A stretch of 64,000 nucleotides of DNA from Stegostoma tigrinum (GCF_030684315.1 NC_081382.1:20956367-21020366); one strand, 5' to 3'; shown: positions 5,951-62,530, numbered from the stretch's first letter. Made by a program: numbers and translations. Notes: a model not told the origin generated them from the sequence alone.

Positions 5951-7232
5951 AGGAGGTCTTTCTCCAGAAAACCAGCACCAACTTGCAATGAGAACCTCAG
6001 CTTTGTGAGGTCCTGGTGCCCACATACATCGAGAGAACTGTTTCTCTGTTCATCAGCTCTGTTTTGGGCACTTCATTTCTTCACTCTTTGATCCAGATTT
6101 CGATCGGCTATGCTCTGTGGATAGGTATGTGGTGGGGAGGAGATGCCAGGTGTTGAAAGCACATTTGGAGATCTAGGCATGGCTGCAGCTGGCTAATTTC
6201 ACTGTTCAAAACCTTCCCAGCTGTCAGCTTCACTGAACAAATATAGCCCTCTGCCACCTTTTCTGGCTACTCCTGGTGAAAAAGCTTATGCTCCAGTTAT
6301 AGTTCATAACTCTGAGCTTAATCCTGAACAGATCCCTATTAATAAATCCCTATTAATTACTTTCCAGACATATCCACGGGTGTTCTCATTCTAACTAAGC
6401 GCCGCCCTGTGAAACTCAGAATTAGAAATGAACAAGTTGGGAGTCTCACCAAATGCCATTCCTTGGGCTTTTAAAACCCTGCCCAAACTTTGCCCCATCC
6501 CTAGCAGTTAAGACTACTCAATGTAGATTGTATCAGACATAATGGGAACTGCAGATGCTGGAGAATCCAAGTTAATAAAGTGTGAAGCTGGATGAACACA
6601 GCAGGCCCAGCAGCATCTCAGGAGCACAAAAGCTGACGTTTTGGGCCTAGACCATTCATCTGAGAGCGGGATGTGGTGAGGGTTCTGGAATAAATAGGGA
6701 GAGAGGGGGAGGCGGACCGAAGATGGAGAGAAAAGAAGATAGGTGGAGAGGAGAGTATAGGTGGGGAGGTAGGGAGGGCATAGGTCAGTCCAGGGAAGAC
6801 GGACAGGTCAAGGAGGTGGGATGAGGTTAGTAGGTAGGAAATGGAGGTGCGGCTTGGGGTAGGAGGAAGGGATGGGTGAGAGGAAGAACAGGTTAGGGAA
6901 GCAGAGACAGGCTGGGCTGGTTTTGGGATGCAGTGGGGGGAGGGGAAGAGCTGGGCTGGTTGTGTGGTGCAGTGGGGGGAGGGGAGATTTTGAAGCTGGT
7001 GAAGTCCACATTGATAGCATTGGGCTGCAGGGTTCCCAAGCGGAATATGAGTTGCTGTTCCTGCAACCTTCGGGTGGCATCATTGTGGCACTGCAGGAGG
7101 CCCATGATGGACATGTCATCTAAAGAATGGGAGGGGGAGTGGAAATGGTTCGCGACTGGGAGGTGCAGTTGTTTATTGCGAACCGAGCGAAGGTGTTCTG
7201 CAAAGCGGTCCCCAAGCCTCCGTTTGGTTTCC

Positions 7233-7894
7233 CAACGCATCATCCTCCGACACTTCTGCCATCTACAATCCGACCCCACCACCCAAGACATTTATCCATC
7301 CCCACCCTTGTCTGCTTTCCGGAGAGACCACTCTCTCCGTGACTCCCATGTTCGCTCCACGCTGCCCTCCGACCCCACCACACCCGGCACCTTGCCCTGC
7401 AACCGCAGGAAGTACTACACTTGCCCCCACACCTCCCCCCTCACCCCTAATACAGCCCCCAAGATGGCTTTCCATATTAAGCAGATGTTCACCTGCACAT
7501 CTGCCATTGTGGTATACTGTATCCATTGTACCCGGTGTGGCTTCCTCTACATTGAGGAAACCAAGCGGAGGCTTGGGGACCGCTTTGCAGAACACCTCCG
7601 CTCGGTTCGCAATAAACAACTGCACCTCCCAGTCGCGAACCATTTCAACTCCCCCTCCCATTCTTTAGATGGCATGTCCATCATGGGCCTCCTGCAGTGC
7701 CACAATGATGCCACCTGAAGGTTGCAAGAACAGCAACTCATATTCCGCTTGGGAACCCTGCAGCCCAATGGTATCAATGTGGACTTCACCAGCTTCAAAA
7801 TCTCCCCTTCCCCCACTGCATCCCAAAACCAGCCCAGTTCGTCCCCTCCACCTACTGCATCACACAACCAGCCCAGCCTGTCTCTGCCTCCCTA
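7233..7894 (+). pseudogene. PLE GIY-YIG endonuclease C-terminal coding remnant
   Basis: QRIILRHF...CNRRKYYTC...VVYCIHCTRCGFLYIEE...EHLRSV...ANHFNSPSHS, with a premature TGA at 7716-7718. Confidence 0.85.
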
Positions 7895-8125
7895 ACCTGT
7901 TCTTCCTCTCACCCATCCCTTCCTCCCACCCCAAGCCACACCTCCATTTCCTACCTATTAACCTCATCCCACCTCCTTGACCTGTCCGTCTTCCCTGGAC
8001 TGACCTATCCCCTCCCTACCTCCCCACCTATACTCTCCTCTCCACCTATCTTCTTTTCTCTCCATCTTCGGTCCGCCTCCCCCTCTCTCCCTATTTATTC
8101 CAGAACCCTCATCCCATCCCCCTCT

Positions 8126-8153
8126 CTGATGAAGGGTCTATGCCCGAAACATC
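8126..8153 (+). ncRNA. Minimal hammerhead-ribozyme motif (family A, mutated stem III)
   Basis: CTGATGA-A-GGGTCTATGCCC-GAAA-CATC, versus family consensus CTGATGAAGGGTCTAGGCCCGAAACGTC. Confidence 0.6.
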
Positions 8154-8544
8154 AGCTTTTGTGCTCCTGAGATGCTGCTTGGCCTGCTGTGTTCATCCAG
8201 CTCCACACTTTATTATCTTCAATGTAGATTGTGTTGATTTAACAATGAGCTGTACTATTTTGGTTGAACATCAATTTAAGTGAGTTTAATGAATGCCTTC
8301 TGTCATTGGATTTGGTGAATTTTCACATGCTGCCTTCCCTCTGTGCTCCATGTTCGTATCTGGCTTCAGCATGCCTCTCTCATTGAATCACGTGCCTACA
8401 GAGGCAATGGTGCTTCCTGCTGCCAGGATTATCCACCACAAATACTGTGGGGACCACATTTAAACACCAGCCGCACACCAGTCCGATTGCGACAAGCAAA
8501 GAATTGCCAATCCAAGTATGCTGCTTGACATTTGAAGCCATTTG

Positions 8545-9170
8545 AAGGAGGGGACTAAGAACAATAAGTTGGCAGCCCACTTGTAGACAGGAACCCGCAA
8601 GTACTTGTGGATGGGGATCCTTGTGGACAAGGAGGGCTAGCCTCTTCCCTCAGGACCATCAAAGGGAATCAGGCCACCAGACTCTGCCAGCATAGAATAA
8701 GATAGGAACCTGGGTCATGCTGGTTTGATGATCAAAAGAAATGTCAGTGATGCTGTAGGAAGGTCAATCCATTTCCTGTCTGCCTGGGAAATATTGCATC
8801 ATCTGTCTGCTACCTCATCTTCATTGTAATTCCATCAATGCACATAGCTCCCACCAAGGCTCATGGTCTACTACCTTTTAATGTTACCTCCAGCATCTTC
8901 CTTCTATAGCTCTCACTCACCTCATCCTCCCTAAATACAAAGCTCCCTACAGAGCTTCCTACATGCTCCCCCGGTACAGCATGCCATCTCTCCTGCTCCT
9001 ACACTCCCACAAGCAGCATCCCAGTCAGTTTCATCTCACTCAATTCCTTCATTTCTTCCATTGCAGGAGAAAATGTTGCATAATATGGGTAAAATAGCCA
9101 ATTTGGGCTAGCGAAGAAGCAAACATTTGTCTCCTCACCTCAAAAAGGAAGAAAATCCTTGAGTTAATGG
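8545..9170 (+). pseudogene. Decayed Myb/SANT-like ORF remnant (PIF/Harbinger accessory-gene type), possibly intron-containing
   Basis: Broken frames read RNPQVLVDG..RRASLFPQDHQR...TLPA...CRKVN. A pyrimidine tract plus TTGCAG|GAGAAAATG at ~9050-9075 looks like a splice acceptor. Confidence 0.45.
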
Positions 9171-9741
9171 AGTCGCAGAGTCGTAGAGCCCTACAGCAAG
9201 AAAACAGACCCTTCGGTTCAACCAGTCCAGGCCAACCATAATCCCAACTAAACTCGTCTTACCTGCCTGTGCTTAGTCCATCTCCATCCAAACATTTCTT
9301 ATTCATGTACTTAAACAGAAATTTATATGGAGATGCTGATACCTCTGTGAAGAATAAAGGGTCATTGTACTATGCGTTGCTGCTCACCTATTCGCACCAC
9401 TATGAAAGTATTCATAACTGGCACAACCTTCTAACCCTTTGAGCAATTTATTTCCTCTCTTCTCTTCTGCAGGCATCGTGGCACTCTCACAACTCCTCTG
9501 TTCTGAACAGACCAGTCCCACACCCATCAGCTCTTTCTTTATCCCTGAGGAAGAAATCCTAGATTTCCCCAGAGAATATCTCAACAAGGCTGCCTCCTGA
9601 ATCTTACAGCAGCTCAGCGACAGATACCCCACTCATCACTTGCTTAGACTAGACTCAGGACCACAGTCCAATGAGTTCACCACTGCCAACTGTCTGTGGC
9701 TGGTCAAGGGAGAAATGGTCCAGATCACTGACACTCAGGAC

Positions 9742-11124
9742 TTAGTTGGTAAAATTTTAGAATCCATTGTAAAGAATGAGATTTCTAAATTCTTGGAAGT
9801 GCAGTGTCAGATTAGAACAAGTCAACACAGATTTAGTAAGGGGAGGTCGTGCCTGACAAACCTGTTAGAATTCTTTGAAGAGGTAACAAGTATGTTAGAC
9901 CAGGGAAACCCAGTAGATATTATCTATCTAGACTTCCAAAAGGCCTTTGATGTGGTGCCTCACGGGAGGCTGCTGAGCAAGGTGAGGGCCCATGGTGTTC
10001 AAGGTGAGCTACTGGCTCAGATTGAGGATTGGCTGTCTGACAGGAGGCAGAGAGTTGGGATAAAAGGCTCTTTTTCGGAATGGCAACCGGTGACAAGTGG
10101 TGTCCCGCAGGGTTCAGTTTTGGGGCCACAGCTGTTCACCTTGTATATTAATGATCTGGATGAAGGGACTGGAGGCATTCTGGCGAAGTTTGCCGATGAC
10201 ACGAAGACAGGTGGACAGGCAGGTAGTACTGAGGAGGTGGAGAAGCTGTAGAAAGATTTAGACAGTTTAGGAGAGTGGTCCAGGAAATGGCTGATGAAAT
10301 TCAACGTGAGTAAATGTGAGGTTTTGCACTTTGGAAAAAAGAATACTCGCATGGACTATTTTCTAAATGGTGAGAAAATTCGCAAAGCAGAAGTACAAAG
10401 GAATCTGGGAGTGTTAGTTCAGGATTCTCTAAAGGTTAACTCGCAGGTAGAGTCCGTGATTAAGAAAGCGAATGTAATGTTGTTGTTTATCTCAAGAGGG
10501 TTGGAACATAAAAGCAGCGATGTGCTTTTGAGGCTTTATAAAGCTCTAGTTAGGCCCCATTTAGAATACAGTGTCCAATTTTGGGCCCCACACCTCAGGA
10601 AGGACATACTAGCCCTGGAGCGTGTCCAGCGGAAATTCACACGGATGATCCCTGGAATGGTAGGTTTAACGTATGATGAACGGCTAAGAATCCTGGGATT
10701 GTACTCATTAGAGTTTGGAAGGTTGAGGGGAGATCTAATAGAAACTTACAAGATAATGTATGGTTTAGAAGGGGTGGACGCTCGGATGTTGTTTCCGTTA
10801 GGTGGGGAGACTAGGACCCATGGGCGCAGCCTTAAAATTAGAGGGGGTAAATTTAAAACTGAAATGAGACGACATTTCTTCAGCCAGAGAGTGGTGGGCT
10901 TGTGGAATTCATTGCCACGGAGTGCAGTGGAGGCCAGGATGTTGGATGCCTTCAAGGCAGAGATCGACAAATTCTTGATCTCAGAAGGAATCAAGGGCTA
11001 CAGGGACAGTGCAGGGAAGTGGAGTTGAAATGTCCATCAGCCATGATTTAAATGGTGGACTGGACTTGATGGGCCGAATGGACTTACGTCCACTCCTATT
11101 TCTTATGGCCTTATGGACTTATGG
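9742..11124 (+). mobile_element. Young 5'-truncated CR1 LINE
   Basis: ORFs 9640-10251 and 10294-11028 are in the same frame, split by one TAG. Motifs [37 protein letters not shown] and WNSLP. Ends in a (CTTATGGA)n-like tail. Confidence 0.95.
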
Positions 11125-13920: not shown

Positions 13921-14353
13921 GGGCAACATAGAAATATATTAAATAGGAGCTGTAGAGCATGTGTCCCTTGAGCTTATTCCATCATGGCTGAGGTGTTTAT
14001 GCTTCAAATTCCACAATCACAACCACAATGTGTTTTGACTCTTCTACTTTCCATCTAGTTTATCACCAATAATCAAGAAACAATCTCAATACAGCCTACC
14101 AGCAATGGCATCCATTGTCAGTCTGTAATTGCCATGCGGCATTATCCAAATCTGAAAGCTGTGGACAAGGAGTCTGTGTAACCCTGTAACCACCGCAAGT
14201 TATCTAGTTAATAAATTTAACAGATAATGATATAATCCAGAGTGATAGCCCAATTTCAAAATGAGATCTTCACAAGAAACTCATTTCAGAGAGAAAATTT
14301 TAGATGAAAGGACAAAACAATCAACACTCAAGAAACAGATAGGATCAAAAATA

Positions 14354-14538
14354 ATAAAATGTGAGGCTGGATGAACACAGCAGGCCAAGCAGCATCTCAG
14401 GAGCACAAAAGCTGACGTTTCGGGCCTAGACCCTTCATCAGAGGGTTGTGCTCCTGAGATGCTGCTTGGTTTGCTGTGTTCATCCAGCCTCACATTTTAT
14501 TATCTTGGAATTCTCCAGCATCTGCAGTTCCCATTATC
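14354..14538. mobile_element. Mini PLE family A fold-back
   Basis: Inverted copies of the family A 3' end. Exact 14-bp TSD TAGGATCAAAAATA at 14340-14353 and 14539-14552. Confidence 0.9.
14414..14441 (-). ncRNA. Minimal hammerhead-ribozyme motif (family A consensus)
   Basis: Minus strand reads CTGATGA-A-GGGT(CTAG)GCCC-GAAA-CG-TC: CUGAUGA and GAAA core, short stem II, palindromic ACGU stem III, GUC triplet. Confidence 0.75.
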
Positions 14539-14818
14539 TAGGATCAAAAATAGACAGGATCTTATCGAAAGAAAGTGGAAAAAGTAACTTTCATATATCA
14601 TAGCATTTGGCTAATACAGGCTTGAGGAAAATATTGCAATTGCTAAGAGGAAGGTCGAACTCAAAAGAATTTTTTGCTATTTGGAAGAGTCTAATAGTGA
14701 CAGCAATCTATTGATTGAAAATTTTGATTCAGTTTTACTTCCTCACTTTGCTGATTTCACTGCAGCACAATCAAACCGATGGATTTGGTTTCTAACCAAC
14801 AAGATTAAAAATTGAGAG

Positions 14819-14940
14819 ATAGTAGGAACTGCCCATGCTGGAGTCTGAGATAACAAGGAGTGGAGCTAGATGAACATAGCAGGCTGGGCAGCATCAGAGG
14901 AGCAGGAACGCTGAAGATTCGGGCCTGGGCCCTTCTTCAG
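14819..14940 (-). mobile_element. Solo 3' end of a PLE family A-related element
   Basis: Single diverged arm ending at the hammerhead core (CTGAAGAAGGGCCCAGGCCCGAA on minus). AAAATTGAGAG is duplicated at 14808-14818 and 14941-14951. Confidence 0.75.
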
Positions 14941-16219
14941 AAAATTGAGAGTGATTTGATAACTCTGGGGTCAGTTTTAAAAACCTACTACCAGCCTGCA
15001 ATATTTAATGTTGTTTTCTCAGCTACTCTCTGCAATGTCACTTCTATTCATAAATGCCTGTGCTTACAGCGTCTTTAACAGCTGCTAATGCAGATTGCAT
15101 GCGGTATTTTCAGGTCCCCAGTCAAAATTTAAATAATAAATACGACGTATTATTAATGCAGGAAAAGAAACTGTGTGAGATAATATAAAGTTGAAGCCCA
15201 ACGGCAGTCTTTTGCCTCTAAAACAGCATGAATGGTATTATTGAAGCCTTTTCTTTGTTCTACCATGGGACGTAGGCATCAATAACTGGCCAGCATTCAT
15301 TGCCTCTCCCTAGTTGCCCTTGAGAAGGTGGAAGTGAGCTGCCTTCTTAAACTATGCGCTGCATGTCAGCCCACAATGCCATTAGGGAGGGAATTCCAGG
15401 ATTTTGACACAGCGACAGTGGAGGGACAGAGGTGGGGTAGGGGGATATATTTCCAAGTGAGGATAGTAAGTGGCTTGAAAGGGAATTTGCAGGTGCGGGT
15501 GTTCCCATATATCTGCTGCCCTTGTCCTTCTAGATAGAAGGTGTCACAGCTTTGGATGGTGCTGTCTAAGAATCTTGTGTGAATTTCCGCAGTGTACCTT
15601 GTAGATGGTAAACACTGCCCCTGAGCATCGGTGTTGGAGGGAATGAATGTCTGTGTATGTACTGCCATTCAAGCATACTACTTTGATTTGGGATGGTATC
15701 AAGCTTATTGAGTCTGTTTGGCACTGCACTCATCCAGGCAAATTGAGAGTATTCCATCACAGTCGTGATTTGTGCCTTGTCGATGGTGAGCAGGCTTTTA
15801 GGAGCCAACAGGTTAGGTAAGTTACTTGCCACAATATTCCTAGCCTCTGACTTGCTTTTGTCACCACTGTATTTATATGGCGATTCCGGTTGAGTTTCCA
15901 GTCAACAGAATCCCGAGGATGTTGGTAGTGATCAGTGATGGTAATAACATTGATGGTCAAGGGACAGTGGTCAGCTTGTCTGTCATTGGAGATGATCATA
16001 CCCTGGCATCGTTGTGGCATAAAAGTTACTTGTGACTTGTGAGCCCAAGCCTGGATATTTTCATGGTCCTGCTGCATTTGAACATGGGCCACTTCAGTAT
16101 CCGAGGAGTCACGAATGGTGCTGAACATTTTGCAATCATCGGTGAACATCCCCACTTCTGACCGTATGATGGAGGAAAGGTCATTGATGAAGCAGCTGAA
16201 CTGTTGGACTGAGGGCACA

Positions 16220-17055
16220 GAAACATAGAAGATAGAAGCAAGAGGAGGCCATCAGCCCTTTGAGCCTACTCCGCCATTCTTCACAATCATGGCTAATTGT
16301 CCAACTCAATAGCCTAATCCTGCTTTCTCCCGATAACCTTTGATCCCATTTGCCCCAAGTGCTATATCTGGTCACCTCTTGAATACATTCTATGTTTTCG
16401 ATCAACTGCTTCCTGTGGTAATGAAGTCCACAGGCTCACCTTTCTTTGGGTGAAGAAATGTCCCCATATCTCCGTTCTAAATCGTCTACCCAGAATCCTC
16501 GGACTGTAACCCCTGGTTCTGGACACACCTACTATCAGGAACATCCTTCCTGCATCTACCCGTCCAGTCCTGTTAGAATTTTATAAGGCTGTATGAGATC
16601 CCCCCTCATTCATCTGAATGCTAGCAAATAAAATCCCAACCTAGTCAATCTCTCCTTATACGTCAGACCCACTATCCCCAGAATCAGCCGGCTAAATCTT
16701 CGCTGCACTCCCTTGAGAGCAAGAGCTCCCCTCCTCAGAAAAGGAGGCCAAAGCTCCACACTATATTCTAGGTATGGCCTCACCAAGGCCCTGTATAACA
16801 ACAACAACACTTCCCTGTTGCTGCACTCGTAACCTCTCGCAATGAAGGCCAAAATACCATTTGTTTTCTTTACCACCTGCTGTACCTGCATGCTTACCTT
16901 CAGCGGCTGGTGCACAAAGACACCCAGGTCCCTTCTCCAAATTTGCAGCAATTCAGGTAGTAATCTGCCTTCTTGTTTTTGCTAAACTCACATTTATCCA
17001 AATTATACTGCATCTGCCATTGATTTACCCACTCGCTCAACCTGTCAAGATCATG
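16220..17055 (-). mobile_element. 5'-truncated CR1 LINE
   Basis: Minus ORFs give WQMQYNLDKC, LVRPYLEY and FFTQR. The 3' tail is near 16220. Confidence 0.9.
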
Positions 17056-17139
17056 CTGAAGGACACTGCCATGAGCCTGCAGATATGTCCTGGAGCTGAG
17101 ATGACTGACCTCCAACAGCTACAACATTCTTCTTGTGAG

Positions 17140-18590
17140 AACAAAGTGTGGAGCTGGATGAACACAGCAGGCCAAGCAGCGTCTTAGGAGCACAAAAGCT
17201 GCCGTTTCGGGTCTAGACCCTTCATTAGAAAAGGGGGATGGGGAGAGGATTCTGAAAACAATACGGAGAGAGGGGGAGGCGGACCGAAAATTGATGGAGG
17301 AGAAGATAGGTGGAGAGAAGAGTATAGGTGGGGAGGTAGGAAGGGGATAGGTCAGTCCGGGGAGGACGGACAGGTCAAATGGGCAGGATGAGGTTAGTAG
17401 GTAGGAAATGGAGGAGCGGCTTGAGGTGGGAGGAGGGGATAGGTGAGAAGAAGAACAGGTTAGGGAGGCGGGGACGAGCTACGCTGGTTTTGGGATGCAG
17501 TGGGGGAAGGGGAGATTTTGAAGCTGGTGAAATCCACATTGATACCATTGGGCTGCAGGGTTCCCAAGTGGAATATGAGTTGCTGTTCCCGAAATCTACG
17601 GGTGGCATCATTATGGCACTGCAGAAGGCCCATGATGGACACGTCGTCTAAGGAATGGGAGGGGGAGTTAAAATGGTTCGCGACTGGGAGGTGCAGTTGT
17701 TTATTGCGAACCGAGCGGAGGTGTTCTGCAAGGCAGTCCCCAAACCTCCGCTTTGTTTCCCCAATGTAGAGGTAGCCACACCGGGTACAACGGATGCATC
17801 TGCAAAGCGGTCCCCAAGCCTCTGCTTGGTTTCCCCGATGTAGAGGAAGCCACAATGGGTACAGCTTATGCACCTGTTGTGGCTTCTTCTACATTGGGGA
17901 AACCAAGTGGAGGCTTGGGGACCGCTTTGCAGAACACCTCCGCTCGGTTCGCAATAAACAACTGCACGTCCCAGTTGCGACCCATTTAAACTCCCCCTCC
18001 CATTCCTTAGACGACATGTCCATCATGGCCCTCCTGCAGTGCCACAATGATGCCACTCAAAGGTTGCAGGAACAGCAACTCATATTCCACTTGGGAACCC
18101 TGCAGCCGAATGGGATCAGTGTGGACTTCACAAGCTTCAAAATCTCCCCTCCTCCCACTGCATTGCAAAACCAGCCCAGCTCGTCCCCTCCCCCCGCTGC
18201 ATTGCAAAACCAGCCCAGCTCATCCCCCCTTCCCTAACCTGTTCTTCCTCTCACCTATCCCCTCCTCTCACCTTAAGCCGCACCTCCATTTCCTACCTAC
18301 TAACCTCATCCCACCCCCCTGACCTGTCCATCCTCTCCGGATGACCTATCCCCTCCCTACCTCTCCACCTATACTCTCCTCTCCACCTATTTTCTCCCCC
18401 ATCCATTTTCGGTCCGGCTCCCATTCTCTCCCTATTTAGTTCAGAATCTTCACCCCATCCCCCTTTTCTGATGAAGGGTCTAGGCCGGAAACGTCAGCTT
18501 TTGTGCTCCTAAGATACTGCTTGTGTTCATCCAGCCCCACACTTCGTTATCTTGGATTCTCCAGCTTCTGCAGTTCCCATTATCTCTGAC
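17140..18590. mobile_element. PLE family A fold-back with rearranged centre
   Basis: Minus arm 17140-~17865 and plus arm ~17870-18590, both with YIGETK/EHLRSV/LGTLQPNG sequence. Exact 16-bp TSD ACATTCTTCTTGTGAG at 17124-17139 and 18591-18606. Confidence 0.92.
18468..18495 (+). ncRNA. Minimal hammerhead-ribozyme motif (family A)
   Basis: CTGATGAAGGGTCTAGGCCGGAAACGTC, with one stem II mismatch. Confidence 0.6.
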
Positions 18591-34779: not shown

Positions 34780-34805
34780 TCTGAGGGCTGCCTGTTTAAA
34801 AATTT

Positions 34806-44160: not shown

Positions 44161-44164
44161 GGTA

Positions 44165-49514: not shown

Positions 49515-49610
49515 AACAAAGTGTAGAGCTGGATGAGCACATCAAGCCTGTGTTCATTTAGTTCTCCACCTTGTTATCTCAGATTCTCCAGTATCTGCAG
49601 TTCCTACTAT
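49515..49610. mobile_element. Mini PLE family A fold-back (old)
   Basis: Short inverted arm plus tail. 16-bp TSD CATATGAAAGTGGAAT / CATGTGGAAGTGGAAT. Confidence 0.75.
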
Positions 49611-51218
49611 CATGTGGAAGTGGAATTTTCTTTCTGACACTAGCAGTTACAGAGGATGTCCTTCCTGGTCTCCTAAAAGGAATTCGGGCAGGTTTCAAGT
49701 CTTGTGCCAGCAAAACCAACGCAGAAAAGGGGCTTTTTTTTCAGTTCATGAAGCTCCTCTAAGTGGCCCATCCACCTACAAATGTACACTCTGCATACTT
49801 GTCTACAGAGGCCTTCGCAGTTTTGCAATTGATGATCTTATCATCTTCACAAAGAGAACATTCAAACAAAACAGGCCTGCATAAACATTAGAGAGTGATC
49901 TCCTTTTCATCTTTATCTGTAACTTGCATCTTTTCTTACTTGAAATCTTCATATTTTATCCAATAATGACCCACAGCTCATGGACTGCAGCACTTTAAGA
50001 AGATAGCTGATCCACCTTCTCAAGGGCAACCAGGGATGGGCAATAAGTGCTGGCCAGTCAGAAACACCCATGTACAATAGTGGATAAAAACAAATTTACC
50101 ATTTCTAACTGAAGTAATTTGCAGGAATAGTTGTGTAAATAACATTTCATTGAAATATAAATCTACATATTTTTAAAATCAAATGTTACAGAAACATTAA
50201 AGTTAATAAGGGGTTACATATAAGTTTATATTTTTTTCAGTTAATGGGCCATTCAGAAGAAACATCTGATTTGTGGCTGTGACACCAAAACCAGTTTGAA
50301 AAGAAGTGGAGCAAGAACTGGGATTATGCCAATTGCTTGGAATTGCTTTGTTGTTGAACAAAGTTCATTAAAGACTTCAACACCTTTTGTCACTAAATCT
50401 TTTTAAAAACCCTTAGTTCTAAATAAAAAGAAATTAGATTGTTAATTTCACCTTTGCGTTATTCCTTTTTAAAAGCTGCCCATTGAAAAGTGACACTGAT
50501 TTAATGCAATGGGTCAGTGAGATTATCCATTGAACAATTCAGCTGCAGAGACTACGAAAGGTTTAAAAAGTTTGATCATGTTATTTAGACTGCAAAACTT
50601 CAATTGTTTAATAATCATTCCAGGAGAATAACCATCCACTATATTGAACATTGTTTAGTTCAGATGCATGAAGTTTGTCTTGCATGGTGTTTAAGTTGCT
50701 TTTTTCAAACACTCACATTTCAGTGTCTTCTAGATTTCCTAGATTGAAACGTACAGGACCACAATAAGAGTCTTTATTTACTACTTTGCTGCAAACACTT
50801 TAAAATGTTGCTTTTTATTCTGCTGCAAGCATGAAAATACAATCTTTACAGATTTAAATTCACGGCTTTTAAAAAAAATTCCAAATGCCTCGTCCTTTTT
50901 TGGCCTGAAGTCAGTAGTAAAGATAACTTATTCCCATGGCAAGGAGAGAAAGCTTTACATTATAAACATCAGGTTCTAATTAAATTCAAAACAAGCATTG
51001 AAGCTGGCAAAAAAGAGAGGGAAATACTGAGCATTACAGCTTAATTTATCCTTGTGCTGGCCTGTGAACTGAAGTGCTTGAATGGAACAATTTGTGTCAG
51101 AAATTACCATCACAAAAGTTGCATTAACAGAGAAACAATAAGCAAGAGGCTTGGACAGTGGAGGAAGTGAGGCCAAGTTTTAGATTACTTTTCTTAAATG
51201 AAAGCAGAAATCAAGGCA

Positions 51219-51310
51219 GATGAAGGGTGTAAACCAAAATGTCGACTTTCCTGCTCATCTGTTGCTGTCTGACCTGCTGTGTTCCTCCAACTCCACACTG
51301 TATTGACTTG
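51219..51310 (+). mobile_element. Diverged PLE family A-related solo end
   Basis: GATGAAGGGTGTAAACCAAAATGTCGACTTTCCTGCTC...CTCCACAC, starting at a decayed hammerhead core. Confidence 0.6.
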
Positions 51311-52092: not shown

Positions 52093-53175
52093 CAATGTTC
52101 TATTGTTCAACAATGGCATCGGTCAGATAAACTAAATTGCTTATTCAAAATATCAACATTCTACCAGGTCTAATAATAAAACATGATGGATAATCAACCA
52201 TGCTTCAAATTCTGATTCTGTGTTGACAATGAATAGAGCAGTGTTGAATAAATATTGGCATTCGAGGACAAGAAGTAAAATAGCACAAAACCTTGGTGCA
52301 AAAGTGTAAGGCATACCGTTGACTGACACGTATTTCTTCATTAAGTATGAAAATGGGTGTTTGCACTTACTTAGCTGTGATCCATGCGCATAAAGTCCAA
52401 TGTGCTCAAAAAACAGTCACTGGGGCATGTTTACGTTTCAACATAACCCATCTTAATCCATTCAGAAAAACACAAAATAAAGATCTGGTCTCCATGAAGA
52501 GAAAAACCATTCATAAAATTCAAGCAAAATCCACAAGAATTACCTTGATTTCTCTGCTGCAACTGAAAACTAGATTGCAATGTGAAGGTACAATCTGAAA
52601 AATGCAGTTGGGGTATATCCAAATTCAAGAGTTGCAGGTATGGCCAGTTATAGGGCAATGAGTTTAGTCCAGTGGAAGATTCAATGGTCAGAGAACGCCA
52701 ATGAAATTTGGCATATTGTTGCCATGTGAGTCAATATTTTCAATATTCTTCAACCATCTTTATTGATTTGTGTCCAGATTGCATGTTTTCCTGGATACAG
52801 ATGTGAAGGAAACACCAGGACCCTAAATCTACATTTATAATAAAAACGCGCCTATGTAAATATATAGTGCTATAAAGAACACCCACTTTTCAGTAAGAAC
52901 CAAAAGAACTGAGGATGCTGTAAATCAGGAACAAAAACAAAGTTGCCGGAAAAGCTCAGCAGGTCTGGCAGCATCTATGGAGGAGAAAAAAGAGTTAACG
53001 TTTCAGAGTCGGTTCTGAGGAAGGGTTACCGGACCCAAAACGTTAACTCTTTTTTTCTCCTCCACAGATGCTGCCAGACCTGCTGAGCTTTTCCAGCAAC
53101 TTAGTTTTTGTGATAATAAAATGTGAGGCTGGATGAACACAGCAGGCCAAGCAGCATCTCAGGAGCACAAAAGCT

Positions 53176-53203
53176 GACGTTTCGGGCCTAGACCCTTCAT
53201 CAG
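53176..53203 (-). ncRNA. Minimal hammerhead-ribozyme motif (family A consensus)
   Basis: Minus strand reads CTGATGAAGGGTCTAGGCCCGAAACGTC. Confidence 0.75.
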
Positions 53204-53427
53204 AGAGGGGGATGGGGGGAGGGAACTGGAATAAATAGGGAGAGAGGGGGAGGCGGACCGAAGATGGAGAGTAAAGAAGATAGGTGGAGAGGGTGTAGGT
53301 GGGGAGGTAGGGAGGGGATCGGTCAGTCCAGGGAAGACGGACAGGTCAAGGAGGTGGGATGAGGTTAGTAGGTAGCTGGGGGTGCGGCTTGGGGTGGGAG
53401 GAAGGGATGGGTGAGAGGAAGAACCGG

Positions 53428-54145
53428 TTAGGGAGGCAGAGACAGGTTGGACTGGTTTTGGGATGCAGTGGGTGGGGGGGAAGAGCTGGGCTGGTAGTGT
53501 GGTGCAGTGGGGGGAGGGGATGAACTGGGCTGGTTTAGGGATGCAGTGGGGGAAGGGGAGATTTTGAAACTGGTGAAGTCCACATTGATACCATATGGCT
53601 GCAGGGTTCCCAGGCGGAATATGAGTTGCTGTTCCTGCAACCTTCGGGTGGCATCATTGTGGCAGTGCAGGAGGCCCATGATGGACATGTCATCAAGAGA
53701 ATGGGAGGGGGAGTGGAAATGGTTTGCGACTGGGAGGTGCAGTTGTTTGTTGCGAACTGAGCGGAGGTGTTCTGCAAAGCGGTCCCCAAGCCTCCGCTTG
53801 GTTTCCCCAATGTAGAGAAAGCCGCACCGGGTACAGTGGATGCAGTATACCACATTGGCAGATGTGCAGGTGAACCTCTGCTTAATGTGGAATGTCATCT
53901 TGGGGCCTGGGATGGGGGTGAGGGAGGAGGTGTGGGGACAAGTGTAGCATTTTCTGCGGTTGCAGGGGAAGGTGCCGGGTGTGGTGGGGTTGGAGGGCAG
54001 TGTGGAGCGAACGAGGGAGTCATGGAGAGAGTGGTCTCTCCGGAAAGCAGACAGGGGTGGGGATGGAAAAATGTCTTGGGTGGTGGGGTCGGATTGTAAA
54101 TGGCGGAAGTGTCGGAGGATAATGCGTTGTATCCGGAGGTTGGTA
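53428..54145 (-). pseudogene. Uninterrupted 3' part of PLE ORF: Cys-rich linker plus GIY-YIG endonuclease (Neptune-like)
   Basis: NLRIQRIILRHF...CNRRKCYTC...VVYCIHCTRCGFLYIGETKRRLGDRFAEH...ANHF..PSHS...RRLQEQQLIFRLGTLQPYGIN. 5'-truncated with no RT. Confidence 0.9.
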
Positions 54146-54726
54146 GCTCCACACTGCCCTCCAACCCCACCACACCCGGCACCTTCCCCTGCAACCGCAG
54201 AAAATGCTACACTTGTCCCCACACCTCCTCCCTCACCCCCATCCCAGGCCCCAAGATGACATTCCACATTAAGCAGAGGTTCACCTGCACATCTGCCAAT
54301 GTGGTATACTGCATCCACTGTACCCGGTGCGGCTTTCTCTACATTGGGGAAACCAAGCGGAGGCTTGGGGACCGCTTTGCAGAACACCTCCGCTCAGTTC
54401 GCAACAAACAACTGCACCTCCCAGTCGCAAACCATTTCCACTCCCCCTCCCATTCTCTTGATGACATGTCCATCATGGGCCTCCTGCACTGCCACAATGA
54501 TGCCACCCGAAGGTTGCAGGAACAGCAACTCATATTCCGCCTGGGAACCCTGCAGCCATATGGTATCAATGTGGACTTCACCAGTTTCAAAATCTCCCCT
54601 TCCCCCACTGCATCCCTAAACCAGCCCAGTTCATCCCCTCCCCCCACTGCACCACACTACCAGCCCAGCTCTTCCCCCCCACCCACTGCATCCCAAAACC
54701 AGTCCAACCTGTCTCTGCCTCCCTAA
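54146..54726 (+). pseudogene. Mirror copy of the PLE GIY-YIG coding region
   Basis: Translation is identical to the minus-strand arm from STLPSNPTTPG onward. Confidence 0.9.
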
Positions 54727-54950
54727 CCGGTTCTTCCTCTCACCCATCCCTTCCTCCCACCCCAAGCCGCACCCCCAGCTACCTACTAACCTCATCCCAC
54801 CTCCTTGACCTGTCCGTCTTCCCTGGACTGACCGATCCCCTCCCTACCTCCCCACCTACACCCTCTCCACCTATCTTCTTTACTCTCCATCTTCGGTCCG
54901 CCTCCCCCTCTCTCCCTATTTATTCCAGTTCCCTCCCCCCATCCCCCTCT

Positions 54951-54978
54951 CTGATGAAGGGTCTAGGCCCGAAACGTC
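54951..54978 (+). ncRNA. Minimal hammerhead-ribozyme motif (family A consensus)
   Basis: CTGATGAAGGGTCTAGGCCCGAAACGTC. Confidence 0.75.
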
Positions 54979-55364
54979 AGCTTTTGTGCTCCTGAGATGC
55001 TGCTTGGCCTGCTGTGTTCATCCAGCCTCACATTTTATTATCTTGGAATCTCCAGCATCTGCAGTTCCCATTATCTCTGAACTTAGTTTTTGTTCCCACT
55101 TTTCAGTAGATGAGCTACAGCACCATCACTAGTAACAGTGTGCAATTATAGCCCAGTATATTTACGCAGGCAATTGCCAGTCTAAATGTGGACAAAGGAA
55201 TTTCTTGTGCAATTATATAGAATGAATGTTTTTAAAATGAGAATTGATTTACGTTTGTGTTCTCCAGTCTATCTCTCACCTAATCCCATTTCACCAGAAG
55301 GCTACACTTGTTCTTGACTCTCTCTTGTGAAATACCACAGAAACCTGATAATACATATTTTATA

Positions 55365-55591
55365 GATAACAAAGTGTGGAGCTGGATGAACATAGCAGGC
55401 CAAGCAGCATCTCAGGAGCACAAAAGCTGACCTTTTGGGCCTAGACCCTTCATCAGAGTTCTCTCTGATGAAGGGTCTAGGCCCAAAACATCAGCTTTTG
55501 TGCTCCTGAGATGCTGCTTGGCCTGCTGTGTTCATCCAGCTTCACACTTTGTTATCTTGGATTCTCCAGCATCTGCAGTTCCCATTATCAC
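55365..55591. mobile_element. Mini PLE family A palindrome
   Basis: Centre CCTTCATCAGAG-TT-CTCTCTGATGAAGG. TSD TAATACATATTTTATA / TAATATGTATTTTATA, where CA versus TG fits decay of one CpG. Confidence 0.9.
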
Positions 55592-56009
55592 TAATATGTA
55601 TTTTATATATAGTTGCGCATGTGCATTTGAATTAAAACAATCCTGGTCCCAGTTGCTTGAAAATTCTGACATTTTGCCCACGTGTTAAAGTTTACGTGAT
55701 TTTGCGAAGTAATTCTATTCCAATCCTGGCAACTTAATTTTTGTTGATATGTCATCCTTTAATAAAACAAAATTGTAACTGTACCAGAAAACTTCTTTTG
55801 TATGAATAAAGACAGCCTTACTGATTTAATGCACATTTTATTTTACGTCAAATTTACTTACTGTACATGTTTGTTTTCATGTTTGACTTTGGAACAGCAG
55901 CAGTCACATTTCCCCAAAACCTCTGTGAAGGCCAAAAGGAATGATTGAATACACTAATGGATTCTAGATCTCTCATTTAATCAGACATACAGTGGGATTA
56001 TGTTCTTGC

Positions 56010-56150: not shown

Positions 56151-56575
56151 TTCAAACAGATTTGGCCAAATTTTCAACTGGATCCGAAGAGGCGTTTTCA
56201 CATTCAAACACCAAACCTTGACTTTAGTTTCAAAGAAATCCGATTTTCCCCTGCATTCATGACCCTGCACCATTTCCCTCTGCTCTTTCTGCGGACAGGG
56301 AATGCCTGGAGTGCAAACTGCATACCCTTCCTCATTTTAAACAGGGGGACAAACGTCGGATTTTGATCTACGCACCATTTTCAGCTGGCAGTGCTGGATT
56401 TCAGAAGCCTGTTAAACAGTACTTCGGATTTGAGAACTTGTGAAGAAGATAAAATGCCCACTAACTAGGACTGGGCTGACCACAGTGACAAACTAGGCAG
56501 TCGCCCATGGCAGCACACCTTGAGGAGTGCCAATTTTGAATGCCAATTAGATAAACAAAAATTCCCTCTAGTCTT

Positions 56576-56714
56576 AGATAACAAAGTGTGGAGCTGGATC
56601 TAGGCCCAAAGCGTCAGTTTTTGTGCTCCTGAGATGCTGCTTAGCCTGCTGTGTTCATCCAGCTCCACACTTTGTTATCTTGGATTCTCCAGCATCTGCA
56701 ATTCCCATTATCTC
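56576..56714. mobile_element. Mini PLE family A fold-back
   Basis: 24-bp inverted stub plus tailed arm. 14-bp TSD TTCCCTCTAGTCTT / TTCCCTCTAATCTT. Confidence 0.88.
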
Positions 56715-57724
56715 TTCCCTCTAATCTTCTCATTTTCTCTGTTTTTTTGTAAATTTGGGAGTGAACAGGAGTATTTTGTCAGGAGTGGAAATGGATGCCA
56801 AACTCATAATTAGCATAATGCGCTAAAAGCCTTTGGGGCCAGCCTGCTGCTGAGGAAATATCCTGAAACCTAAAAGTGAAGTCTTTCCACATCTTTGATG
56901 TATCTGTTAGATGTTGTATTAGAGTGTAAATGTTTTTTACTGCTGTGATTTTGACATGGAAAGGTTATGTTGAACATTACGTTGAACACCACTATGTAAT
57001 TTGCATGTGCAATATCATGTTTTTCTAACAAAGAAAGTGCCACAATACATTGAATATTATTTTTAAAAAGTCTTTCACTGTCACATTTTTGTGCTCTAAT
57101 TTAGTTGGACTGAAAGGTATTACTCTGTTCGTGGAGCAGTAAGATTTTATTCTGACATCAGTTCCATTATGAGTGCATGGCTGGGTTTAAAAAGCTTGAA
57201 CTGAGCAGGTCACCCTAGTGATTCAAAAACTACTGAAATTAAGCCCATAAATAATAGGATATATATTTTATACAGTTACTAGTTTATTTATAACGTTTTT
57301 TTAACCTTGGATTTTTGGTCCATTATCAGATATAATGAGATGTATTTAGAGTTTTCTTAGATTGCCACAGATGTAATGGTTTTCCAATGACTACAGTAAG
57401 TGTAATTGCTATTGAGTGTTTCCTAATAACTGTATGTAGTGCAGCATGGGTTAGCGATATGGAACATTGATTGGGCCAAAACGAAATTGTGGTGTGGCAT
57501 CAAACAATATGAGGTAGCATGCAGTAGAAGGGGATGGCTGTGAGATGGGTAAAAGGTGAAGTTTAGGCGTCTCAAAACAGCTTTGGAAGCCTGGCCATTG
57601 TATTTGAGAACCTAAAGCTATTCTGACTAGCCCACGTCCTCATTGACATGCTTGTCACAGCTCGCAAAATGCGCCACAAACCTGACCACTGTGTGAAAAG
57701 GTGACAAATTCTAATAAAGCTGCT

Positions 57725-59554: not shown

Positions 59555-59780
59555 GAGAACAAAAGCAAAATGCAGTGGATGCTGAAGATCTGAAATAATA
59601 TCAGGAAATGCTTGGGAAATTTAGCATGTCTGGCAGCCGCTGTACAGAGAGAAAGAGAGAGAGAGAGCTAATGTTTTGAGTACAATGTGACAGCTCTGAT
59701 GGAGTGTCAGATTAGACAAATTACGTTTAAAAGGCTGCTGCCAGACCTGCAGAATTTCTCTAGCACTTTCTGAGTTTAGT
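59555..59780. mobile_element. Old PLE family B-related fold-back
   Basis: TGTCTGGCAGC...GCTGCCAGACCTGC inverted arms, with a decayed CTGATGGA core in the middle. Confidence 0.6.
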
Positions 59781-60340: not shown

Positions 60341-61145
60341 AAAACATCGGGTGTCAATGTTTAAGATAGTGAATAATCCACAGCCACCAGGGACAGAAAT
60401 TTCCCAGCCTCTAAACAACCTGGGAGGTGGCAAGAGAATTGGGAAAACTAGCGAGAATGGAAAAAAAATCAGATTGCCGAGGTCAAGAAAATATATCAGA
60501 ATATATGCATGAGCTTTTAACAGTTAGTTGAGAATCTCACTAGTGAGTTGCAAGCAGCCTATTTGCATGTACCAACATCTTATTATTAACAAAACTTGCC
60601 TCATTTACATGCAGCTTGCAGTTTTTCCCAAGTCATGAGTTTCTTCTTCAAGCATCAATCTTGGACAGTACTCCCCAAAACCTCAGGTCACACTCTATGG
60701 GTAGTGACCACTTTGATCCCCAACAACAGAGGCTCGCATTGGCAGAACACCAGCCTCACCACATCATCAGAGAACAACTTGATTGCACTTGAAACACAGA
60801 TGAGTACTTCAATCCTGCATTTTGGAGCTCACATTGCAATGCTGCAGCCAGATTGCACTGTACAGAAGGACAGCACATTATTATCTTATTTCATTATTAT
60901 TACACATTATCTCCTGCATCGGATCAGAGTGTGTCACAGGGCTCTTAGCTTGCTTTCTTAGTCTGCGTTCACTTCTACTTGAATACTTACAGTATTCCTG
61001 CCTTGCCTTGTCTTATTGTGCTGTGCCATTTCATCCAGAACATTTACTTGCATCTCCAGAGCACTGCCCATGAACAGGATGCCAATCTGCCAGTGTCGGC
61101 CATACCCCTTGGAAATTTTCACACACTGGAACTTTGCAGGGCAAG

Positions 61146-61462
61146 GGTGGCACGGTGGCTCAGTAGTTAGCACTGCTGCCTCACAGCACCAGGGACCCAG
61201 GTTCGATTCCACCCTCGGGCGACTCTCTGTTTCTGAGGTCGTTTGCACGCTCTTCCCCGTGTCTGTGTGGGTGTCCTACGGTTTCCTCCCACAGTCCGAA
61301 GATGTGCAGGTTAGGTAAATTGTCCGCGCTAAATTCCCCATAGTGTTCAGGGATGTGTAGATTAGATGGGTTATGGGGGATGGGTCTGGGTGGGATGCTC
61401 TTTGTGTCAGTGTGGACTTGTTGAGCCAAAGGGCCTGTTTCCACACTGGAGGGGTTCTATGA
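61146..61462 (+). mobile_element. HE1-like SINE
   Basis: A-box TGGCTCAGTAG (~61156), B-box GGTTCGATTCC (61200-61210), CR1-like 3' tail. Confidence 0.9.
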
Positions 61463-61874
61463 AAAATTATATGAAATTCCTGGTTTGCAGCAAGGCAACA
61501 CTAAGTAGCTGGGTTTAAATCTGGCACCAGTGGCATGAGCACCAGAGGGTGGTAGTGAGCACAAGATAATGCAAGAACAGAGCAATGGAGACCTGGTACA
61601 TATGAGATGAGCAATGCAAGATTGCATGAATAAGTCACTACAGCTCGTGGAGAGAAAGCCTCTACTAAACTCGCCAAAATTGACACTTGATCAAATATTT
61701 GGAAAATATAGACCAAGAGTTGAAAGTTAACCTCCAGGTTACTGACGTAAGCAACTCATCAAGAATTAACTTATAACAAAAGCTTTCACATTCTCTTTGA
61801 ATACTTTATCAATAATTACAAAAATGTAGAGATGGGAAGAAAATCTATTTGACTGACAGCAAGAAACACCAGTT

Positions 61875-62195
61875 CGGAGGGAGATAGGTTGGATTTGGTG
61901 AGGGGGGCAGAGAAATTAAGTCGGCCAACAGCATGTCGACAGTTCTCAATGAAGAGATCGAGCGCAGGTAAAAGATCAGAGGGAGGGACCCAGGTAAAGG
62001 GAAAGTGTTGGAACTGGGCAAAGGGGTCTGTGGGACAGGGGGAAGACTCTTGTCTAAAGAAATGTGCATAGAGGCGAAGATGGCTGAAGAAGAGTTCTGA
62101 GGAAGGGTCACCAGACCTGAAACATTACCTCTAACTTTTTTCTTCACAGATCCTGTCAGATGAGCTGAGCTTTTCCAGCTGCTTCTGTTTTTGTT
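61875..62195. mobile_element. PLE family B insertion with purine-rich 5' segment
   Basis: 15-bp TSD CAAGAAACACCAGTT / CAAGAAACACCAATT. Hammerhead motif GAGTTCTGAGGAAGGGTCACCAGACCTGAAAC at ~62092-62123. Confidence 0.75.
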
Positions 62196-62424
62196 CAAGA
62201 AACACCAATTAGTGATTGAAGGATCTCTGTGCTTTTCAGAGTCGAGCTATAACAACTGATATGTTGGCTGACCAATGAAAGTAGAGTGGGAATATGGGGC
62301 TAGAGAAGTTGGAGGCCAGAGGTTATGTGTTGAAATCTTCAGGAATTGTGGGACTAGGGACGTGCACTGAAGTAGGGTGAGGGTTGGAGCACCTGGGCTG
62401 TGGAACTGTGCTTTTACACGGCAA

Positions 62425-62530
62425 ATCAGTTCTGAAGAATGGCCACTGGACCAAAAAGATTAATTCTGTTTCTCTCTCCACAGATGCTGCCAGAGCTGTC
62501 AAGTTTCTCCAGCAATTTTTGATTTTGTGC
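62425..62530 (+). mobile_element. Old solo PLE family B end
   Basis: CAGTTCTGAAGAATGGCCACTGGACC...CACAGATGCTGCCAGA. Confidence 0.65.

Follow-up and report, generated by a model that had tools for sequence, protein, structure and literature searches.

Head-to-head insertions of Penelope-like elements in Stegostoma tigrinum: one tailed arm and two fixed 5' ends

In the window, a stretch of 64,000 nucleotides of Stegostoma tigrinum DNA (GCF_030684315.1 NC_081382.1:20956367-21020366), short sequences recur as two inverted copies of one 3' end joined head to head. Which elements are inserted in this form, and how does one insertion come to hold two copies? A preliminary description had counted about 20 insertions and recognized head-to-head ends of Penelope-like elements (PLEs) in three families (A, B and C). 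Both points were borne out by self-BLAST, family BLAST and a site inventory: 14 head-to-head hairpins (10 of family A, 2 of B and 2 of C) lie beside about 11 solo or decayed PLE ends, giving 25 sites in total. Arms range from 8 bp plus tail (23758) up to 1,035 bp (53112).

Insertion sites in the window

The sites are given below with their flanking duplications (TSDs).

6518-8232: family A hairpin; tailed arm 6535-7233 (minus), untailed arm 7233-8218 (plus); exact 14-bp TSD, 6518/8219
14340-14552: short family A hairpin; untailed arm (minus) extends to the hammerhead core, tailed arm (plus) begins immediately beyond the cut site; exact 14-bp TSD, 14340/14539
14808-14951, minus: older A-like solo tailed end, beginning at the hammerhead; 11-bp TSD
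17124-18606: family A hairpin; arms of about 730 bp; exact 16-bp TSD, 17124/18591
22268-22455: family C hairpin; no TSD found
23742-23856: family A mini hairpin; arms of 8 bp plus tail and 44 bp; 16-bp TSD, 2 mismatches
24359-24626: family A hairpin; centre 24514/24515; both arms begin at the putative transcription start; hammerhead motif in each; exact 15-bp TSD, 24359/24612
25656-25879: short family A hairpin; 11-bp TSD, 2 mismatches
27658-27733, plus: decayed B-like end
29662-29726, 36826-36890, 49548-49611, 51219-51310, 59736-59769, 62460-62530: similar decayed ends
34793-34965: family C hairpin; candidate 9-bp TSD
39045-39213, minus: family B solo tailed end, beginning at the putative start site and bearing one extra G; 14-bp TSD, 1 mismatch
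45448-45716: short family A hairpin; central 35-bp filler; 13-bp TSD, 1 mismatch
47617-47849: family B hairpin; 12-bp TSD, 2 mismatches
48705-49138, minus: older family A solo end; 5' part rearranged; no TSD found
52882-55108: family B hairpin (52898-53111) with a young A insertion at its right end; exact 14-bp TSD, 52882/55095
53098-55093: young family A hairpin; untailed arm 53112-54146 (minus), tailed arm 54140-55079 (plus); exact 14-bp TSD, 53098/55080
55349-55607: short family A hairpin; hammerhead core reached by both arms; 16-bp TSD, 2 mismatches
56562-56728: family A hairpin; untailed arm of 23 bp; 14-bp TSD, 1 mismatch
61840-62200: family B untailed end beginning at the putative start site (62092), fused to an antisense PLE ORF piece (61861-62100; 57% to aa 354-433 of family A)

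The six duplications reported earlier as exact were all exact and correctly placed. The earlier figure of at least 14 TSDs of 14-16 bp was slightly high; 10 were found (6 exact, 4 with 1-2 mismatches), besides one of 13 bp and four shorter ones (9-12 bp). When the right boundary was shifted as a chance control, repeats of at least 9 bp appeared in 0 of 257 cases. Among young hairpins, the TSD measured 13-17 bp in 70 of 80. A paralogous empty site was found for 16 of 93 hairpins, each with a single TSD copy and no arm. TSDs beyond chance, together with these empty sites, uphold the claim of one integration event per hairpin. The pairs might instead have arisen by inverted duplication after insertion, by gene conversion or as a fold-back assembly artefact, as the 100% identity of some young arms could suggest; with whole pairs enclosed by TSDs, empty paralogs, arms that differ by the tail and old pairs that diverged independently, we consider this highly improbable.

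The insertion targets are not microsatellites. The target bias is alike outside both TSD ends, where position -3 favours a purine (n = 72; p 2e-10 and 2e-8). Solo ends are tailed and untailed about equally often, and their TSDs are shorter or absent; 30 of 65 young solos had none, and some of these may be decayed hairpins. The hairpin had been called the default product, which is an overstatement, as hairpins make up about half to two-thirds of insertions: 23 of 35 for family A in unselected DNA (16 of 27 with the window left out), and about 47% after correction in the end-selected sample.

Master elements and known relatives

The sampled DNA came mostly from one contig (C1) and three blocks, one of which, a tandem duplication, was trimmed to 95 kb. 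Open frames of at least 1,000 aa were present in about 70 of 150 scored matches, and frames of at least 1,074 aa in all 20 masters fetched. One master, L182, has RT and GIY-YIG domains, includes a partial tandem as well as an inverted arm, and is flanked by a 15-bp TSD. Its ORF of 1,085 aa matched RVT_1 (E 4.7e-5) and GIY-YIG (E 0.004), both below gathering scores, and has 811 homologs with an identical domain set. Intact family A masters of about 1,085 aa carry RT and GIY-YIG and have ends matching the hairpins, so RT-bearing elements with these ends do exist. In family B, RT+EN shows about 50% identity; family C retains decayed EN/RT pieces at 28-40%. These data support the assignment of the hairpins in all three families to PLE insertions.

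Within the young hairpin at 53098-55093, whose arms are 100% identical across 897 bp, the following parts are recognizable.

54100-54726, plus: open frame; C-terminal part of the family A ORF, comprising CX4CxxC linker and GIY-YIG endonuclease (GIY-YIG E 4e-4, under gathering score)
54947, plus: equivalent of the main 5'-end pile-up (reference unit 3481; putative capped transcription start)
54951-54978, plus: minimal hammerhead motif of type I; cut predicted after 54978, with the second 5'-end pile-up at 54979 (unit 3513)
55043-55079, plus: 36-bp tail, bounded by 3' end sites at 55042 (site 1) and about 55078 (site 2)

A single ORF with RT and C-terminal GIY-YIG, DKG, CCHH and a CX2-5CxxC linker is described for Neptune/Nematis-type PLEs, along with partial tandems, an adjacent inverted 5'-truncated copy, a 30-40 bp tail at one end and a hammerhead in the pseudo-LTR (PMC8557442, in the sections available). 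The shark elements agree. DKG in RT and CCHH with two Cys inside the GIY-YIG core were present when the translation was judged by eye against that description; the linker reads CX4CxxC in families A and B (L270, L278); and a pseudo-LTR, a 5'-truncated copy in partial tandem ahead of the full unit, was seen in L171, L175-177, L179-182 and L187-190. The optional tail at one end and the inverted 5'-truncated copy of EN+ PLEs are likewise present: of 136 hairpins, 132 carry the 36-bp tail on one arm and not on the other.

The design as such is not new, and inverted PLE architecture has been published (PMC2377424, PMC8557442). An insertion flanked by inverted repeats is the most frequent form of D. 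virilis Penelope (PMC2377424), and the inverted architecture is drawn as typical of PLEs (PMC8557442). The latter account has the inverted copy present 'often' and ascribes the tail to resolution of an intermediate, whereas the shark hairpins follow the one-tail rule almost without exception, have TSDs of 13-17 bp, do not target microsatellites and are mostly non-coding. Penelopes of Adineta vaga share the inverted pLTR, the one-sided tail and a TSD around the whole unit, but their TSDs are 8-10 bp and self-priming was proposed (PMC3846280). Copy numbers in D. virilis and A. vaga are small, unlike those of the shark families (PMC2377424, PMC3846280, in the parts available). Missed earlier was the informative part, the one-tail rule together with the pair of fixed 5' ends; these and other genome-wide footprints are absent from the literature searched.

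Could the hairpins be MITE-like TIR DNA transposons moved by a DDE transposase? Many hairpins of similar size (about 225 bp) with TSDs, and 5,841 with both arms starting at the hammerhead core at most 30 nt apart, would suit that reading, and in annotation short hairpins would be taken for MITEs or microRNA precursors. However, the ends are asymmetric, arms run from 8 bp to more than 3.5 kb, centres vary by copy and each hairpin ends in the 3' termini of RT+GIY-YIG elements, leaving this reading next to no likelihood. Fixed symmetric TIRs were not found, and the RT-bearing masters refute a MITE identity. Animal (non-LTR) retrozymes were also rejected: they form head-to-tail arrays (bioRxiv 10.64898/2026.07.22.740005, in the part available), whereas the shark copies are mainly head-to-head pairs or solos, many without a whole motif. 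A shared trait with metazoan PLEs and animal retrozymes is that motifs far outnumber full elements (PMC4209133, bioRxiv 10.64898/2026.07.22.740005).

Family A and its older relatives make up 7-11% of the sampled DNA. Ends number about 190 per Mb; for the whole genome this would be about 6e5, provided that two 200-kb blocks are typical. Young copies, in the tens of thousands, offer counts on the Penelope transposition cycle, still termed undefined in recent papers, and exact positions for bench tests.

Origin of the two arms

Two 3' end sites, 36 nt apart, leave one arm tailed and its partner untailed; against free choice, the one-tail rule has p about 1e-34. In family B, 19 of 19 hairpins pair one long with one short 3' end. 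The shorter arm was the tailed one in 31 of 80 hairpins, the untailed one in 31, and 18 were equal. By size class, 57 hairpins comprised 39 short-short, 15 long-long (4.8 expected under the null) and 3 mixed pairs, and long arm lengths were nearly independent (rho 0.31, p 0.08, n = 34). Arm junctions have 0-4 nt of overlap or short filler, the latter in 11 of 37, and some centres are perfect palindromes.

Sister arms point to a common source element. Recurrent variants were shared 168 times and discordant 34 times in 40 sister pairs, as against 866 and 11,332 in 1,560 non-sister pairs. In sister arms, private CpG changes are mostly unshared (8 shared vs 47 not); hence the sharing is not due to later conversion. 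The 34 discordant lineage variants cluster in a few hairpins (L036, L201, L034, L202 and L230), and some arm pairs may come from two sources.

Each hairpin is a single EN+ PLE insertion, probably made when both strands are primed as a pair and copying starts at two sites, likely of one RNA. An RT-GIY-YIG protein, probably paired, would nick both strands about 14 nt apart and prime reverse transcription at both nicks. Of the two copies, one would begin at site 1 and its partner at site 2 on RNA of one source element, likely one molecule. Both cDNAs would be antisense and would not pair along their length; joining of their 3' ends, presumably by end-joining, would leave a head-to-head pair within a 13-17 bp duplication. 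A single surviving priming would give a solo end. The earlier proposal of priming on both strands of a staggered cut of about 14 nt gains support from the one-tail rule and the symmetric target preference. Both-strand-primed, RNA-templated insertion is relevant to gene-writing tools.

Paired priming with each active site on its own RNA, both transcribed from one locus, seems unlikely to us. It accounts for shared source variants with occasional discordant pairs, and suits the near-independent long arm lengths as well as start-site arms joined to cut-site arms (9 of the first 100 matches listed). Yet an extra rule is needed for 132 of 136 hairpins to combine a start at site 1 with one at site 2, and short and long arms are mixed in only 3 of 57 pairs, though every full transcript offers both kinds of template. 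Fold-back self-priming, in which a single cDNA snaps back and copies itself into the second arm, yields shared variants and correlated size classes at no cost, and perfect palindromes at some centres. But a copy never exceeds its template, so the tailed arm should always be the longer, which fails in the 31 of 80 hairpins with a longer untailed arm; the exact stop at site 1, both types of solo end and the target bias at both nicks are left unexplained, and filler also speaks against it. As a general route self-priming is disfavoured, and we hold it to be very unlikely.

L1 twin priming is a related process, giving 5' inversions when both target strands prime and two cDNAs are joined. L1, however, inverts two non-overlapping parts of one RNA, whereas both shark arms copy the same 3' end, start at two fixed internal sites and lack a poly(A) tail. 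An in vitro precedent for the paired priming proposed here is PAc, a Poseidon element of Anolis carolinensis, which nicks and extends both strands and starts RT internally at two sites, one at each end of the tail; it also has an AT-rich nick site, a minimal hammerhead and a predicted dimer (PMC11167929). Poseidon is without the Cys linker of shark families A and B, and the available sections of that paper do not tie the two start sites to the two arms of inverted insertions and find the start site to be no different between strands (PMC11167929).

The hammerhead motif and the 5' ends

A minimal-hammerhead descriptor found 46 motifs in 559 kb, compared with 0-2 in 10 Markov shuffles; motifs in families B and C were identified by eye. 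Like the minimal hammerheads of metazoan PLEs (PMC4209133), they have the core boxes, an unpaired base before helix II, a G-C closing pair and a palindromic helix III. Helix I of family A has just 2 bp, and in its minimum-energy fold the 5' RNA does not form the hammerhead. Rfam gave no hammerhead family match on the hairpins, only sub-threshold microRNA-precursor matches. Most products had been described as non-coding ribozyme hairpins; the non-coding part stands (42 of 57), and the ribozyme part was overstated, the core often being missing. Among 39 short hairpins it was reached in both arms in 10, one arm in 15 and neither in 14.

The 5' ends of many short arms fall on one of two fixed points, one 4 nt before the hammerhead core and the other at the predicted cut site. 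The first peak (unit 3481) had 4,888 genome-wide matches, against 106 for a control five bases upstream. By hand counts, a G preceded 70 of 100 matches listed at this site and 26 of 100 at the cut site (Fisher p 6e-10); for the family B start site it was 47 of 100 listed. A cap-derived extra G is known at full-length L1 5' ends (cited in PMC4038843), and the extra G here makes a capped transcription start the likely origin of the main pile-up. D. virilis Penelope likewise has promoter and start site in the pseudo-LTR (PMC2377424). It may be noted that, among 17 of 40 fetched start-site loci with a resolvable TSD, the G was foreign to target and element in one, and in six other G cases it doubles as the TSD's last base.

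The second peak (unit 3513) had 1,346 matches, about 95% of them true junctions among the matches listed (about 1,280). After by-eye removal of mutated intact copies, its neighbours had about 380 (-2) and about 315 (+1); peak corrections were estimated from the first 100 matches listed per pattern. With no G excess, this pile-up suggests RNA self-cleaved in vivo at the predicted hammerhead cut.

Alternatively, under paired priming, both pile-ups could mark RT stalls or microhomology at short palindromes instead of RNA ends, a reading we find rather doubtful. A 4-nt palindrome follows the cut site, and the start site becomes palindromic where two arms meet; at -2, about 13 of 100 listed junctions rely on a 4-nt match with the partner; and in family B the signal at the cut site is weak (58 matches, of which about 28 are true; 38 at -1, of which about 8 are true). 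Against it, the cut-site peak spans a single base and exceeds its neighbours about 3-4-fold even though the pattern excludes perfect palindromes, and matches joined to apparent flank are about 42 of 100 there and about 6 of 100 at -2 among those listed. Moreover, 28 of 50 listed symmetric junctions fall on the cut site and 1 on an equally long palindrome 5 nt away, a helix II stall would fall 8 nt further 5', and the G excess is unequal between the peaks.

For the 5' ends as RNA ends, we regard as evenly balanced the fuller model of a two-active-site complex on one RNA whose commonest products are leader run-offs ending at the cap or the hammerhead cut. Short hairpins would be run-off copies of the RNA's first 64-132 nt, and long arms would derive from templates in which element sequence precedes the start sites, either the 3' copy or tandem or read-through RNA. 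A role of the hammerhead has been proposed without in-vivo evidence (PMC4209133, in the part available). In vitro, PAc does not require it, and the available sections report no RNA-seq ends at its cut site, unlike the shark genomic copies, which peak there (PMC11167929). If true, the model would provide the first in-vivo evidence of metazoan minimal hammerheads cutting their own element's RNA, and a single cause behind the tail, the inverted pseudo-LTR and the many orphan hammerheads of animal genomes.

A few short tandem arrays without the core were seen among the junction matches.

Penelope-like hairpins in the window and in the genome

When the window was compared with itself, the inverted pairs were visible. 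Family searches together with the inventory gave 14 hairpins (10 of family A, 2 of family B, and 2 of family C), each made of two arms of the same 3' end joined head-to-head. Solo or decayed ends numbered about 11. The preliminary description had quoted six flanking duplications (TSDs) as exact, and all six are exact. Its count of at least 14 TSDs of 14-16 bp was a little high, as 6 exact TSDs and 4 with 1-2 mismatches were found in that range; one further TSD measured 13 bp and four measured 9-12 bp. A young family A hairpin at 53098 is nested in a family B hairpin that has its own TSD; young family A copies within family B or C ends were also seen at locus L181 and at 168.9 kb of the C20 block. 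The hairpins are real and had been correctly classed as Penelope-like elements (PLEs); their architecture is known, and they hold more mechanistic information than was seen at first. Other features of the window are listed below.

Remnants and repeats in the window
2770-3513, RVT_1 match, E 1.5e-20
9601-10251, RVT_1 match, E 1.1e-19
15757-16251, RVT_1 match, E 0.03
26067-26467, minisatellite, 52-bp unit, 7.7 copies, 96% match
34575-34779, minisatellite, 25-bp unit, 8.2 copies, 96% match
61861-62200, antisense piece of the N-terminal half of a PLE ORF, linked to a family B end beginning at the inferred start site

The RVT_1 matches are unlike the PLE protein, and are likely to be LINE or other retroelement remnants. 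The junction at 61861-62200 is a non-overlapping, L1-like inversion.

The long arms encode a GIY-YIG domain. Ends were counted genome-wide with exact patterns, and a 55-nt family A end had 54,653 exact copies in the 3.2-Gb genome; an endonuclease query returned 298,896 candidates. Frames of at least 1,000 aa occurred around about 70 of 150 scored N-terminal peptide matches, and in 20/20 of those fetched. The fetched locus L182 has the typical layout: TSD, a 497-bp inverted untailed arm, a 212-bp pseudo-LTR, a full 3.6-kb tailed unit, and TSD. Its protein combines RT and GIY-YIG with DKG and CCHH motifs and a CX4CxxC linker, a kind of linker assigned to Neptune and Nematis in PMC8557442. The closest named homolog of the family A protein is from bamboo shark (77%). 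Family B ends are preceded by an RT and endonuclease about 50% identical to those of A, with a linker identical in type, and family C ends by decayed endonuclease and RT pieces (28-40%). The hairpins at L188 (G000:C4:68.97 Mb) and L177 (C28:38.48 Mb) measure about 7.9 kb and have both arms full-length, with frames of 1,084-1,120 aa, each hairpin being enclosed by one TSD of 13-14 bp. A short Pro/Thr/Ala/Asp/Gly repeat of variable copy number precedes the RT in the family A ORF (L182:5900-6070 region; P0001 aa ~250-295), and because of it the family A frames vary from about 1,074 to 1,120 aa.

PLEs are already known to have inverted truncated copies, tails on one side, TSDs, and minimal hammerheads. 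Hence, the shark elements are further PLEs of known type. Nothing was found in the literature searched on shark PLE hairpins, a rule of exactly one tail per hairpin, a shared source of the arms, a symmetric target, or 5' ends at a cap or cut site, some of which may be described in subscription papers, Repbase/Dfam entries, figures, or bioRxiv supplements.

Insertion of hairpins and solo ends

We annotated 323 non-redundant family A sites from the window, three unselected blocks (200, 95, and 200 kb), and 185 fetched loci; the second block was shortened to 95 kb as the rest was a tandem duplicate. The stretch L131-L150 (G000:C10:30.0-30.2 Mb) is a segmental duplication in tandem, repeating about every 92-97 kb, and each copy carries the same PLE insertions.

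Among 80 young hairpins, the TSD was 13-17 bp in 70 (mode 14-15) and 8-12 bp in 3, with none in 7. When the boundaries were shifted as a control, repeats of at least 9 bp appeared in 0/257. For 16 of the 93 hairpins tested a paralogous empty site was obtained, in which a further copy of the host repeat runs across the site with a single TSD and without an arm; within the genome sequence sampled, the other 77 had no paralog of the site. Two young hairpins were compared with contigs from four runs, three of them DNA-like and one RNA-like, where repeats dominated and no clear empty allele appeared.

Hairpins made up 23/35 insertions in unselected DNA (16/27 without the window). The end-selected sample held 39 hairpins and 32 solos, or about 47% hairpins once we corrected for their two chances of detection. 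No TSD was found for 30 of 65 young solos, and most others had one of 8-13 bp. Therefore, hairpins are a main product of insertion but not the sole one.

Tails, priming, and the source of the two arms

The arms end at two fixed positions 36 nt apart, site 1 (untailed) and site 2 (tailed). One arm ran to site 1 and the other to site 2 in 132 of 136 hairpins; three were tail-less, one of which has a duplicate copy that retains the tail, and one was two-tailed. If each arm chose freely, half of the hairpins would be one-tailed. The long and short 3' ends of family B were likewise paired in all 19 hairpins; the 39 decayed ends of family C included just 3 hairpins, few and old. Young solos were about evenly split (41 tailed vs 35 untailed).

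The second arm might be made by simple fold-back copying. This is incompatible with the arm lengths: of 80 hairpins, 31 had the tail on the shorter arm, 31 had it on the longer arm, and 18 had arms of equal length. The window by itself had suggested that the tail always sits on the shorter arm, an idea that failed on the same counts. With the two ends read on opposite strands, the six bases outside the TSD showed the same bias on either side, a purine at -3 (p 2e-10 and 2e-8, n=72), as expected with one enzyme cutting both nicks. Arm junctions had overlaps of 0-4 nt in 26/37 and filler in 11/37. For an anole element, PMC11167929 describes extension on both strands from two sites bounding the tail, and the one-tail pattern of the shark agrees with these start sites.

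Recurrent non-CpG variants were compared between arms. In 40 sister pairs 168 were shared and 34 discordant, against 866 shared and 11,332 discordant in 1,560 non-sister pairs. Private CpG changes in sister arms were mostly unshared (8 shared vs 47 unshared); hence, the shared variants are not mainly due to later conversion. By size class, 57 hairpins comprised 39 short-short, 15 long-long, and 3 mixed pairs (null mean 4.8 long-long), the lengths of long arms being nearly independent. The simplest reading is that one RNA was copied twice; alternatively, two RNAs from one locus may have served as templates.

5' ends and unusual products

Positions are those of the family A reference unit, the natural copy L182:5187-8798 (core 3485, predicted hammerhead cut 3512/3513, site 1 3576, site 2 3612). 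The 146 validated 5' ends piled up at 3479-3490 (57) and 3513-3522 (17), with 0.03-0.05 per base upstream. Genome-wide, 5,841 hairpins had both arms beginning at the core. Arms starting at 3481 gave 4,888 pattern matches, and the identical design five bases upstream gave 106. By hand count, G preceded the 3481 start in 70 of the first 100 matches, where about 26 would be expected from the genome; among the 44 matches in flank-like context the count was about 27. The family B peak is likewise 4 nt upstream of its own core (2,381 matches, preceding G in 47/100); it coincides with an initiator-like sequence and with the base that opens a 4-bp helix I. In the 17 TSD-resolved solos among 40 fetched, all 4 blunt joins and both 2-nt overlaps had G at the junction, one further solo had a lone untemplated G, and G was missing from the longer overlaps and from most fillers. 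A cap-derived extra G has an L1 precedent, cited in PMC4038843, and the start site of D. virilis Penelope lies within the pseudo-LTR (PMC2377424). Judged from these DNA junctions, unit 3481 is probably a capped transcription start. A 3' splice site behind the pile-up suited the family B sequence, not that of family A, and was dropped.

A hammerhead descriptor found 46 motifs in 559 kb, against 0-2 in shuffles; nine were in the window, eight of them inside PLEs. No Rfam hammerhead model matched. The predicted cut site gave 1,346 matches with a pattern that excludes perfect palindromes, and G was at background (26/100). The control at -2 gave 1,126 matches, of which about 66% were mutated intact copies (about 380 remain), and that at +1 gave 553, about 43% mutated (about 315 remain). 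Among the first 50 of 1,444 symmetric junctions, 28 fell on the cut site, against 1 on the equal palindrome at a distance of 5 nt; a third palindrome had about 8. The junctions point with good probability to 3513 as the uncapped end of self-cleaved RNA in family A. Against this count the few family B ends at the cut site (about 28, vs about 8 at -1), the 2-bp helix I of family A, and the lowest-energy fold of the leader, which is not a hammerhead. PMC4209133 describes in-vivo evidence on the role of the hammerhead as lacking, and in PMC11167929 no RNA ends are seen at the hammerhead cut site.

Coding sequence was absent from 42/57 unselected hairpins. The core was reached in both arms of 10 of the 39 short hairpins, in one arm of 15, and in neither of 14. 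Short hairpins are by-products remade at every insertion and form no ribozyme-transposon family; their propagation as units was rejected because the centres differ between copies.

Head-to-tail repeats of 106-bp period, at G000:C1:144587913-144588157 and three other matches, have the tail, extended by about 4 bases, fused to the hammerhead cut site. They resemble retrozymes but are without the core, and may stem from template jumps or circular RNA. Insertions at L226:6541-6967, L220:8908-9502, and L104:829-2427 carry post-tail sequence (unit 10-95, 1-169, or 1-1090); with jumps in this group from about 1080-1090 to about 3350-3400, their templates are internally deleted or jumped. Short tandem arrays at L217:1735, L218:3953-4069, and L204:6742 repeat a piece of about 47 bp of an older A-like end, spanning from after the cut site to site 1.
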